Source: Euryarchaeota archaeon SCGC AAA252-I15
GTDB taxonomy: Archaea > Altiarchaeota > Altiarchaeia > IMC4 > SCGC-AAA252-I15
Direction of reading: 5' to 3'
Assembly: GCA_000402775.1 (NCBI GenBank)
Contig: AQSC01000059.1
Span: 4,257 to 68,256, forward strand
DNA length: 64,000 nucleotides
The notes under the pieces: generated by a model
Database searches by the model: none
The model's input: only the letters and a program-made list of their open reading frames with translations
Told to the model about the DNA's origin: nothing
Shown here: in pieces, positions 30,551 through 31,853 of the stretch
Position numbering within the stretch: position 1 is the stretch's first letter
Layout of the letters: every line of letters begins with the position of its first letter
Translations under genes and position numbers: made by a program

Positions 30551-31228
30551 ATGGAAAACATAGAAAAATCGCTTAAGGCACTTCAAGACGGCTCTTTCAT
30601 ACTCGTGCACGATTCCTCTGGGAGAGAAGACGAAACCGATCTTATAGTCGCCGCCGAAAAAATCACTCCAGCTCACGTACGCACGATGAGAAACGAGGGG
30701 GGAGGATTGATATGCACTGCCCTGGCAAAAGATTTAGCCGAAAAATTAAGTCTAGTCTTCATCCAAGACATATACCAAGCCGCAGCAAAATCCTTTCAAA
30801 TCCTCCCGGAACTTAAAGCCGACGACATACCCTACGACGAAAAATCATCTTTTTCCATAACCGTAAACCACAGGAAAACATTCACAGGAATAACCGACAC
30901 AGACAGGGCGCTCACCATACGGGAACTAGCCTACATCGCGAAAGCCGAGCCAAACCCACAGGCGTTTGGCTTGAATTTCCGAACACCCGGGCACATTCCA
31001 CTTCTTATCTCTTCAGGATTGGGCAAGCGGGAGGGACACACAGAACTTTCAATAGGACTTCTTGAGATGGCGGGGCTTACTCCAGTCTCCGTGGTTTGTG
31101 AGATGATGGACGATGAAACCTTCAAAGCCTTGACGGCGGAGAAGGCGAAGGCTTATGCAGAGAAAAACGGTCTAGTATTCCTTGAAGGATCTGAAATTCT
31201 AAATGCATATGAGAAATGGCGAAGATAG
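30551..31228 (+). CDS. ribB: 3,4-dihydroxy-2-butanone-4-phosphate synthase
   Basis: VHDSSGREDETDLIVAAEKITPAHVRTMRNEGGGLICTAL and RTPGHIPLL. Confidence 0.9.
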   Translation: MENIEKSLKALQDGSFILVHDSSGREDETDLIVAAEKITPAHVRTMRNEGGGLICTALAKDLAEKLSLVFIQDIYQAAAKSFQILPELKADDIPYDEKSSFSITVNHRKTFTGITDTDRALTIRELAYIAKAEPNPQAFGLNFRTPGHIPLLISSGLGKREGHTELSIGLLEMAGLTPVSVVCEMMDDETFKALTAEKAKAYAEKNGLVFLEGSEILNAYEKWRR

Positions 31229-31398
31229 GAGTCTGCGACACAACGTTCGCGAGCAACCTTTTTAACAAAAAGGTTCCGAGAAAATGCTTCACGTTTTCTG
31301 GACACAAAATTGCATCGCAATTTTGCTGTGATCAAAAATGTGTGGGGTCCGCTAACGCTCACCCCACCGTGCATGAGGTGGATGAATGGCGAAAATAG
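31216..31398 (+). other. Relay/decoy ORF: duplicated first 13 codons of ribC fused to insert-derived sequence (60 codons)
   Basis: Starts with the same 38 nt as ribC. Overlaps the ribB stop by 13 nt and ends at a TAG 13 nt into the true ribC start. Confidence 0.6.
31254..31385 (+). repeat. 132-nt hairpin-rich insert between the two ribC 5' copies
   Basis: Hairpins CCTTTTT/AAAAAGG (31257-73), AGAAAA/TTTTCT (31279-99), AAAATTGC/GCAATTTT (31306-24) and GTGGGGT/ACCCCAC (31342-67). Ends GCATGAGGTGGATGA. Both ends have matches in 50600-50893. Confidence 0.7.
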
Positions 31399-31853
31399 GA
31401 GTCTGCGACACAACGTTTGCGAGATACGATATGGCGGCGGACGCGATAGACGAGCTTAAGAAAAACGCTGGTGGAGTGAAAATAGTCCGCTACACCGTCC
31501 CCGGGCTAAAGGATCTGCCGGTCGCTGCGAAAAAACTCATTGAGGAGGAAGAATGTGACCTAGTGATGGCGTTTGGAATGCCAGGCGCAGATGAAAAAGA
31601 CCAGGTTTGCGCAAACCAAGCGTCCACGGGACTTATAAACGCACAGCTAGCCACAAACACGCACGTAATAGAAGTCTTCGTGCACGAAGACGAGGCAGAC
31701 TCGGATGCGAAACTCGCCGAACTCATGGAAAAAAGAGCGAGAGAGCACGCACTAAACGTCGTGGACTTGCTCGTGAACCCCCGGAATTTAACACGGCTTG
31801 CAGGTTCGGGGCAGAGGCAGGGCGGGCCGGACGCTAAACCTCTTAAGAAATGA
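31386..31853 (+). CDS. ribC: Riboflavin synthase, archaeal type
   Basis: [16 protein letters not shown]..., lumazine-synthase-like fold typical of the archaeal enzyme. Lies in the rib cluster. Confidence 0.85.

Follow-up and report, generated by a model that had tools for sequence, protein, structure and literature searches.

The described systems that come closest to the element reported here are of several kinds. REP/BIME sequences are repetitive extragenic palindromes that form mosaic arrays and are thought to be moved by RAYT tyrosine transposases; MIRUs are intercistronic inserts of mycobacterial operons, whose small open reading frames (ORFs) overlap the flanking start and stop codons and have been proposed to keep translation coupled; and integrative elements that duplicate their attachment (att) site usually use the 3' part of a tRNA gene. 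Here we describe a 170-nucleotide (nt) unit at the junction of the riboflavin genes ribB and ribC in a 64-kb stretch of the genome of Euryarchaeota archaeon SCGC AAA252-I15 (contig AQSC01000059.1; the whole stretch is called the window below), in which the start of ribC stands twice around a 132-nt insert of four hairpins. The unit is a real and non-random structure, which we would most readily assign to a group of insertion scars peculiar to this archaeal clade, and on balance we think it probable that the scar was left by the DNA-level insertion of a segment of dispersed hairpin modules with a long target duplication. Among well-known prokaryotic elements, only IS1634/IS1549 leave long, variable direct repeats (8 to 514 bp), and their family is diverse in archaea (PMC2266710).

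The window and its relatives hold six events of this anatomy in total, with duplications of 23, 36, 39, about 72 to 77, and 93 nt and inserts of 35 to 132 nt. With REP/BIME sequences they share short palindromic units, variable and lineage-specific mosaics, and covarying stems, and a hairpin array at 50590 to 50893, which has modules in common with the inserts, is likewise extragenic, lying between convergent genes and after stop codons. REPs are not known to bring duplications of 23 to 93 nt or to take positions inside first codons or tRNA genes (PMC3733652 and PMC2817692), whereas all six events here carry such duplications, as against REP insertion without a long one; in addition, no GTAG or CGTC tag is evident and the host is an archaeon. 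No RAYT (Y1 HUH) transposase was found among 10 ORFs scanned in the window. Like MITEs (miniature inverted-repeat transposable elements), the inserts are small, non-coding, present in several copies, and flanked by direct target repeats, with occupied and empty sites among relatives. However, terminal inverted repeats are lacking, as none of the inserts at ribC, tRNA-Pro, and TrmJ has two ends in reverse complement to each other; the duplications are long and variable, where those of MITEs are short and fixed; and the inserts are mosaics of modules and not copies of one element. Within the 64 kb, only modules recur.

Palindrome-associated elements derived from IS200/IS605 insert 3' of a conserved 4- to 5-nt target without duplication, whereas the present events have duplications and no common boundary motif. 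The likeness to IS1634 lies in the long, variable direct repeats (here 23 to 93 nt); those insertion sequences, however, exceed 1.5 kb and have a DDE transposase and terminal inverted repeats, whereas the inserts here are 35 to 132 nt long, non-coding, and without inverted ends, and the events are biased toward gene ends. As in MIRUs, a small ORF overlaps the flanking cistrons in the window (31216 to 31398) and at ribH of a relative called L004, although none does at ribC of L004 and the pattern is within chance. MIRUs are tandem direct repeats of 40 to 100 bp without hairpin arrays and do not duplicate the start of the downstream gene, whereas the window has a single 132-nt insert with no tandem unit and an overlap geometry inherited from the duplication. 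The att-duplicating integrative elements are matched in that the repeats are a terminal segment of the gene ending at the gene boundary (p = 0.003), with one copy intact, the other a remnant, and a tRNA gene among the targets; they differ in that they span kilobases and encode an integrase, whereas only non-coding hairpins of 35 to 132 nt stand between the repeats here, and 5' ends are the usual target of the present events. CRISPR-like or casposon-like integration was dropped as a candidate, the duplication length being far too variable and the inserts too long.

Anatomy of the ribB-ribC junction

In the window, ribB (DHBP synthase; Pfam PF00926 on the called gene) occupies 30551 to 31228 and ribC, which encodes an archaeal riboflavin synthase of 155 amino acids (aa), occupies 31386 to 31853, both on the plus strand. 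An earlier note on this DNA had reported a duplicated ribC start around a four-hairpin insert, and the sequence bears this out. The 38-mer ATGGCGAAGATAGGAGTCTGCGACACAACGTTCGCGAG at 31216 to 31253 recurs at 31386 to 31423 with 2 mismatches (AAG/AAA and TTC/TTT), and inclusion of the preceding A gives a direct repeat of 39 nt (31215 to 31253 and 31385 to 31423, plus strand); dinucleotide shuffles predict 0 repeat pairs at three or fewer mismatches. The copies lie 170 nt apart with the 132-nt insert between them, and their identity is 95% across the 39 nt, with none beyond. Copy 1 is a remnant made of the native ribB end and the first 12 to 13 codons of ribC, with the last 13 nt of ribB and its TAG stop (31226 to 31228) inside it, and copy 2 is the functional ribC start. 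From the ATG of copy 1, a decoy ORF of 60 codons (31216 to 31398, plus strand) runs through the insert to a TAG at 31396 to 31398 inside copy 2. The stop/start overlap is thus present twice, as the note had also stated; this is a trivial consequence of a duplication that covers the first 13 nt.

The insert itself (31254 to 31385, plus strand; right boundary ambiguous by up to 3 nt, AAT) consists of the hairpins H1 (31255 to 31275), H2 (31279 to 31299), H3 (31302 to 31329), and H4 (31342 to 31367), a linker GATCAAAAATG between H3 and H4 (31330 to 31340), and a tail (31368 to 31385). Folded as RNA, it reaches -43.3 kcal/mol (z = -3.9), a stability equaled by 0 of 200 shuffles, and folded as DNA it has a z of -4.8. 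The tail supplies a Shine-Dalgarno-like GAGGTGGA (31375 to 31382) 4 nt before the ribC ATG, and the identical octamer precedes ribH at 32313, in agreement with the earlier description.

The junction is base-for-base identical in at least seven assemblies from independent samples (JGI, ENA, and Logan, with different pipelines), and two further short contigs begin inside the insert and cover only the 3' part of the junction. It is therefore real and fixed in the species and no assembly artefact.

Distribution of the ribC unit and of related scars

Comparison of orthologous ribB-ribC junctions revealed that the 170-nt unit is lineage specific and not universal. By the names of its closest RibC and TrmJ homologues, the organism belongs with Altiarchaeota-like uncultivated archaea. 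A 96% relative (L003, on the same contig as L007, GCA_043823295.1) carries the same insert; compared to the window, L003/L007 show four changes within copy 1 and two more by which hairpin 2 becomes perfect, with GAGGAGGA as the Shine-Dalgarno sequence. One 82% lineage (L004/L005) has a 36-nt duplication and an 81-nt insert at the same ribC site. The L004 insert has neither H2 nor H3; it is made up of H1 (AACCTTTTTAAAAAAAAGGTT) and the linker GATCAAAAATG, together with a single GC-rich hairpin and a tail of unrelated sequence. Against the window, 20 of the 21 positions of H1 match, as do all 12 of the linker TGATCAAAAATG, and an H4-like hairpin is also common to both inserts, whereas the flanking ribC nucleotides are only about 68 to 72% identical. 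L116 to L121, the closest relatives of L004 (RibC identity of 92% in amino acids and 88% in nucleotides), have a plain 8-nt ribB/ribC overlap, and the junction is also plain in L006, L122 to L126, L127, L008, L142, and about 105 other archaeal ribC loci. A metagenome scan with patterns from the RibC alignment, which were too general, returned only relatives at 72% identity or less.

A local direct-repeat scan of the window uncovered two further cases of an insert with a duplicated gene start. At tRNA-Pro(TGG) (49259 to 49333, minus strand), the duplication begins exactly at tRNA position 1; a 61-nt insert (49334 to 49394, minus strand) separates the intact gene from a remnant of positions 1 to 23 with 1 mismatch (49395 to 49417, minus strand), and a TATA-like TTAATAAA lies 19 to 26 nt upstream of the remnant. 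This tRNA was missed by the whole-window Rfam scan at the gathering threshold and scored 50.9 bits (cutoff 29 bits) in an E-value scan of 7.5 kb. The second case is a TrmJ/SpoU-like methyltransferase gene (54008 to 54723, minus strand; ATG at 54717), in which the functional copy of the duplicated segment (54631 to 54723) is preceded by a 61-nt insert (54724 to 54784, minus strand) and, upstream of it, a 93-nt remnant, 88% identical, that reaches from -7 to codon 29 (54785 to 54877, minus strand). Here a decoy ORF of 49 codons runs from 54870 down to 54721 and stops 3 nt before the real ATG, which no Shine-Dalgarno sequence precedes. The site is empty in L128 and L131, and two weaker direct-repeat candidates in these relatives proved not to be hairpin events. 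In the same gene, at 54589 to 54598, the window has one extra C in a C run (poly-G on the coding strand) compared to the 99.7%-identical contig L133; it shifts the frame and splits the methyltransferase ORF, an intact 250-aa product of which (P0121) is present in another assembly. The extra base would be either a homopolymer sequencing error or a strain variant.

The remaining events were found in relatives. The 5' end of ribH is affected in L004 and L116: a hairpin insert of 87 to 94 nt, with an H1-like hairpin at its beginning, comes after a diverged second ribH start that includes the Shine-Dalgarno sequence, and the stop of a 54-codon ORF overlaps the start of ribH as ATGA. At the 3' end of ribH in L116 only, the last approximately 72 nt of the gene are duplicated (approximately 72 to 77 nt) around a 35-nt hairpin; this site is empty in L004. 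The left part of the 3' remnant (L116, 2763 to 2800) has diverged and is now a hairpin (GCACGG AGCGAG CCGTGC) resembling the interior of module M described below, a hint that remnants may be places where hairpins evolve or are patched in. In all five of the five 5' events, the duplication starts 0 to 27 nt before the first nucleotide of the gene (tRNA +1; ATG -1, 0, -7, and -27; Fisher combined p = 0.003). No such scar was seen in about 1.1 Mb of other archaeal loci, versus six in about 0.2 Mb of this clade. Because the same anatomy occurs at the tRNA-Pro and TrmJ-like genes, the phenomenon is not specific to ribC or to translation.

The inserts are linked to one another and to the array at 50590 to 50893 by shared modules. 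The array is dense (z = -6.2) and holds, in order, a hairpin followed by GCATG and GGTGGATGAAT, ending at 50702; module M (50722 to 50755); an H1-like hairpin (50764 to 50780); CAACCTTTTT at 50801; hairpin T (50812 to 50836); and, directly after a stop codon, a 3'-end module (50839 to 50879, minus strand) homologous to the ribH 3' insert of L116, with 76% identity over 42 nt. Module M, a stem of GTGTCATC/GATGGCAC around GAGC...GCGAA, has three copies in the window with covarying stems, one in the array, one in the tRNA-Pro insert (49338 to 49366, plus strand), and one in the TrmJ-like insert (54725 to 54761, plus strand); it keeps a T-G pair on the plus strand and folds better there, the target genes being on the minus strand. 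Hairpin T of the TrmJ-like insert (54763 to 54787) is 92% identical to that of the array. At least three types of insert are distinguished: an H1 type (ribC and ribH 5') with a common defined 5' end, (C/G)AACCTTTT; an M type (tRNA-Pro and TrmJ); and the 3'-end module. The earlier grouping of the ribC insert with other hairpin-rich sequences of the window is supported. The proposal that parts of the insert recur in 50600 to 50893 is weaker: its basis is the exact 10-mer CAACCTTTTT, the exact 11-mer GGTGGATGAAT, and a similar arrangement of a hairpin and GCATG, and the enrichment of k-mers shared with that region is only modest (for k of 8, 9, and 10, within the top 0.4%, 2.7%, and 5.9% of windows, respectively). 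A C/D-box or K-turn reading of module M and GGATGAA was dropped, since the consensus boxes are absent.

Two further features lie in this part of the window. A strongly structured leader of 236 nt (47670 to 47905; z = -6.9) precedes the gene of a secreted Lamin-tail-domain protein (ATG at 47906); a UUUUCCUCCUCUG stretch pairs with its Shine-Dalgarno region AAAGGAGGAAAAGA, and the leader begins with CAACCTT, like H1-type inserts, with no flanking duplication seen. Upstream of a 54-aa ORF (50435 to 50599), which resembles a ribbon-helix-helix protein, has no Pfam match, and is followed by the hairpin array, stand about six AT-rich tandem repeats with an 11-nt period (50321 to 50386; AGTTACTAGTT-like). 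The iteron-like repeats and this ORF may be the remnant of a small mobile element.

Probable origin by insertion and rival explanations

Copy 1 of the window is identical to the functional copy (copy 2) of L007. Both copies were therefore identical when the window and L007 lineages split, and the duplication was thus either exact at birth or homogenised later. Copies within a lineage are 89 to 95% alike, and ribC starts between lineages are about 68% alike. Because H1 and the linker are nearly identical at this level of divergence, the comparison favors two recent insertions of related elements at the same ribC site, one in the window lineage and one in that of L004. A less likely alternative is a single ancient ribC insertion followed by precise losses and concerted evolution, which would need only one gain and two losses.

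The insertion reading would run as follows. A 132-nt segment from the hairpin modules of a dispersed, lineage-specific family would have entered ribC after codon 12 to 13, and the event would have made an exact direct duplication of the first 38 to 39 nt of the gene, including the last 13 nt of ribB. The upstream copy keeps ribB complete and the downstream copy ribC, and the insertion would be tolerated because both genes are preserved. ribC would be read from the same operon transcript through a structured leader and translated via GAGGTGGA in the insert tail, possibly with the aid of ribosomes that come off the decoy stop 13 nt into ribC; the decoy itself would be a by-product. The duplication could stem from a long staggered break that was filled in, as in transposition-like target duplication, or from microhomology-mediated template switching, with a polymerase departing from the gene, copying hairpin DNA at another place, and priming anew at the start of the gene; we consider these two routes about equally likely. 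We lean slightly toward a host replication or repair process, because the inserts are of three unrelated types, have no terminal inverted repeats, and are flanked by duplications ranging from 23 to 93 nt. Microhomologies of 3 nt are present at the two junctions for which 50590 to 50893 offers a donor-like copy (AAT after GGTGGATGA and TTT before GTCGGAGTTT). Together with the variable duplications, the unlike inserts, and the lack of terminal inverted repeats, they agree with a template switch during host replication or repair no less than with a dedicated transposase. The defined end of the H1 type and the conservation of modules across lineages are compatible with a mobile element. An origin from a virus or plasmid was rejected: the hairpin T pattern had 0 matches in IMG/VR, the H1 pattern had 3 AT-rich chance matches only, and blastn against phage and plasmid collections gave no match. 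From GC skew, no orientation of replication was derivable.

Several observations weigh against this reading. The bias toward gene boundaries is explained neither by a staggered cut, even one filtered by selection, nor by plain template switching, and neither route explains the use of the ribC site twice with nearly the same boundaries. No transposase, integrase, or reverse transcriptase was found among the 10 window ORFs scanned near the hairpin sites, no donor copy was identified, the kinship of the ribC insert with other window elements is weak at the sequence level, and there are only six events, two of them at the same site. That the unit has persisted in both the window and L007, even though its 39-nt repeats could serve to delete the insert, hints at selection or a very low deletion rate. 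Moreover, most changes in the remnants are synonymous with respect to the former reading frame: copy 1 of L007 ribC has TGT, GAT, TTT, and CGC, and copy 1 of TrmJ in the 99.7%-identical strain L133 has three third-position single-nucleotide polymorphisms (SNPs) within 10 nt. A neutral scar does not predict this unless patches were imported from functional alleles, and such recombination patches would explain the synonymous changes without selection on the decoy. SNPs between the window and L133 cluster in short patches (52736 to 52807, 58440 to 58443, and 58540 to 58615), as recombination imports would, and one patch (54820 to 54829) falls in the TrmJ-like remnant. A possible but doubtful wider reading is that, in this Altiarchaeota-related lineage, an undescribed insertion process puts short hairpin-module DNA at the ends of protein-coding and tRNA genes and duplicates 23 to 93 nt anchored at the gene or transcript boundary; it could take the form of a template switch linked to transcription or RNA ends, or of a homology-guided mini-element with the gene end as its attachment site. 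If true, this would add to prokaryotic mobile DNA, or to repair scars, a new class from which decoy starts and structured leaders routinely arise.

The earlier note had offered a hand-off of ribosomes from ribB to the decoy to ribC as the reason for the structure. A translational relay or regulatory leader kept by selection, in which ribosomes ending ribB would start the decoy at the overlapping ATG, melt the four hairpins, terminate 13 nt inside ribC, and re-initiate, with ribC coupled or tuned to ribB, is in our judgment unlikely. Such a relay would account for the doubled stop/start geometry and the Shine-Dalgarno sequence in the insert tail, for the fixation of the unit in every assembly of the species and its retention in the 96% relative despite direct repeats able to delete the insert, for the near identity of H1 and the linker in a lineage with saturated synonymous sites (L004), and for two analogous decoys that end at a real start (at -3 for TrmJ and in the ATGA overlap for L004 ribH), the TrmJ-like gene having no Shine-Dalgarno sequence of its own. 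However, as the note itself had cautioned, the open frame could be chance (p of about 0.23 to 0.29): the ribC decoy frame is open through the insert in 23% of dinucleotide shuffles and ends within 20 nt of the ribC ATG in 29%, and frames that are open or end within 20 nt of the real start make up 57 to 64% of shuffles for TrmJ and 75 to 77% for L004 ribH. With openness and near-start ending thus within chance (shuffle fractions of 0.29 for ribC, 0.64 for TrmJ, and 0.75 for L004 ribH), selection on an open decoy frame is unsupported. The L004 ribC decoy stops 48 nt before the ribC ATG and its insert is missing H2 and H3; the same scar is found at a tRNA gene, in which translation has no role, and at a gene 3' end; and neither the closest relative of L004 nor any other ribC locus examined has the insert. 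The decoy peptide retrieved only itself among 5.8 billion proteins, and Rfam gave no match over the junction at the gathering threshold or at E of 5 or less, the tRNA being the only match over 47.5 to 55 kb. Since the decoy frame is within chance, the L004 decoy is short, and the peptide has no relatives, a relay is not indicated as the reason for the structure. It would be a plausible effect of the structure rather than its demonstrated purpose, the hand-off being physiologically possible, and it may be most needed at the TrmJ-like gene, where re-initiation would be useful because the real ATG has no Shine-Dalgarno sequence.

Two further rivals address the boundary bias directly. In a Campbell-type event, which we regard as quite unlikely, a homology-guided mini-element made of a hairpin segment with an attached gene-end copy would recombine with the homologous gene by a single crossover, through host recombination or an integrase acting in trans, and leave two gene-end copies, as a miniature of elements that carry a replacement tRNA-gene end. 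The duplication would then end at the gene boundary, and the same site and boundaries would be used in two ribC lineages, as observed. In line with an element that takes a gene end along, the ribH 5' remnant in L004/L116 is native-like (MDKINLG, as in L006), and the functional copy belongs to a different type, which has one additional codon (MKEKISLG) and is that of the window lineage; the RibH protein of L004 stands nearer to that of the window than to that of L006, which does not hold for RibC or the acetyltransferase; compared to the empty-site ribC of L116, copy 2 of L004 differs at 7 positions and copy 1 at 3, and differences between copies are mostly synonymous. Yet at ribC a foreign allele is not required, because the two copies did not differ when the window and L007 parted; the tRNA-Pro insert has no promoter-like sequence, and a self-sufficient attached gene start is thus not evident; units of 84 to 170 nt are very small for double-stranded circles; six targets require six different captured gene ends; the formation of the first association is left unexplained; and no integrase was seen among the 10 ORFs scanned. 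Alternatively, though this too seems improbable, and a shade more so, a polymerase or reverse transcriptase working on the transcript of the gene itself, or meeting an R-loop or initiation complex, would reach the RNA 5' end, switch to a hairpin-rich RNA or DNA template, and rejoin downstream, leaving a duplication anchored at the transcript start. The starts at tRNA +1 and at ATG -1, 0, -7, and -27 agree with this, as do the TATA-like TTAATAAA at a distance from the tRNA remnant that suits a start near +1, the defined 5' end (C/G)AACCTTTT of the type A inserts, and a motif order that suggests inserts co-oriented with their target genes; PMC2104539 describes chimeric retro-copies formed by template jumps in eukaryotes. 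Against it, both ribC and ribH lie inside an operon and show no evident promoter at the boundary, it is not clear that the 3'-end event finishes at a transcript end, module M folds better on the strand antisense to the target genes, and no reverse transcriptase was identified among the 10 ORFs scanned. Finally, a decayed 170-nt tandem duplication or an assembly artefact would suit the tandem-like spacing and the breaking of contigs inside the unit in some assemblies, but it is improbable in the extreme: identity of 95% over 39 nt and then nil would mean non-uniform decay, on which ground simple tandem decay was rejected; the insert has modules in common with that of another lineage; and the agreement of at least seven independent assemblies on the junction disposes of the artefact.

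Other features of the window and significance

The 256-nt gap between cdc6/orc1 (29125 to 30255, minus strand) and ribB contains an inverted repeat, GTGAGGGCGTGAA/TTCACGCCCTCA, flanking an AT-rich stretch (30280 to 30390); this arrangement, some 0.9 kb away from the ribC insert, has the look of an archaeal origin of replication with ORB-like boxes. About 1.7 kb (32746 to 34458) that separate ribH from the RibD_C gene are missing in the 96% relative (L007, 1513 to 1550); they hold a 49-aa ORF along with two paralogs (202 and 204 aa) that have no match in Pfam; because other relatives carry different unknown genes there, the interval is a variable hotspot. In or beside the 3'-3' gap between a DUF87/HerA-like gene and a minus-strand gene, two AT-rich 34-nt copies (56426 to 56459 and 56511 to 56544; 82% identical), each with a palindrome TTGTA...TACAA, are separated by an unstructured spacer and may be paired terminators. 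Long coding repeats with periods of 9 to 15 nt (8699 to 8827, 13722 to 14975, and 63581 to 63775) are Thr/Ser-rich in ORFs of 2235 and 739 aa and Lys/Glu-rich at the window end, which suggests large surface proteins.

If the scars prove genome-wide, they would represent a route by which selfish or repair-derived hairpin DNA enters essential genes, overlapping genes of operons, and tRNA genes and yet does not kill them, thanks to the duplicated gene end, and they would readily supply archaea with upstream decoy ORFs, structured leaders, and split operon junctions. In annotation, the scars lead to spurious small ORFs, to N-terminal extensions (as seen in P0121), and to broken contigs. That the duplications favor gene starts could indicate that insertion or repair is tied to transcription in archaea.

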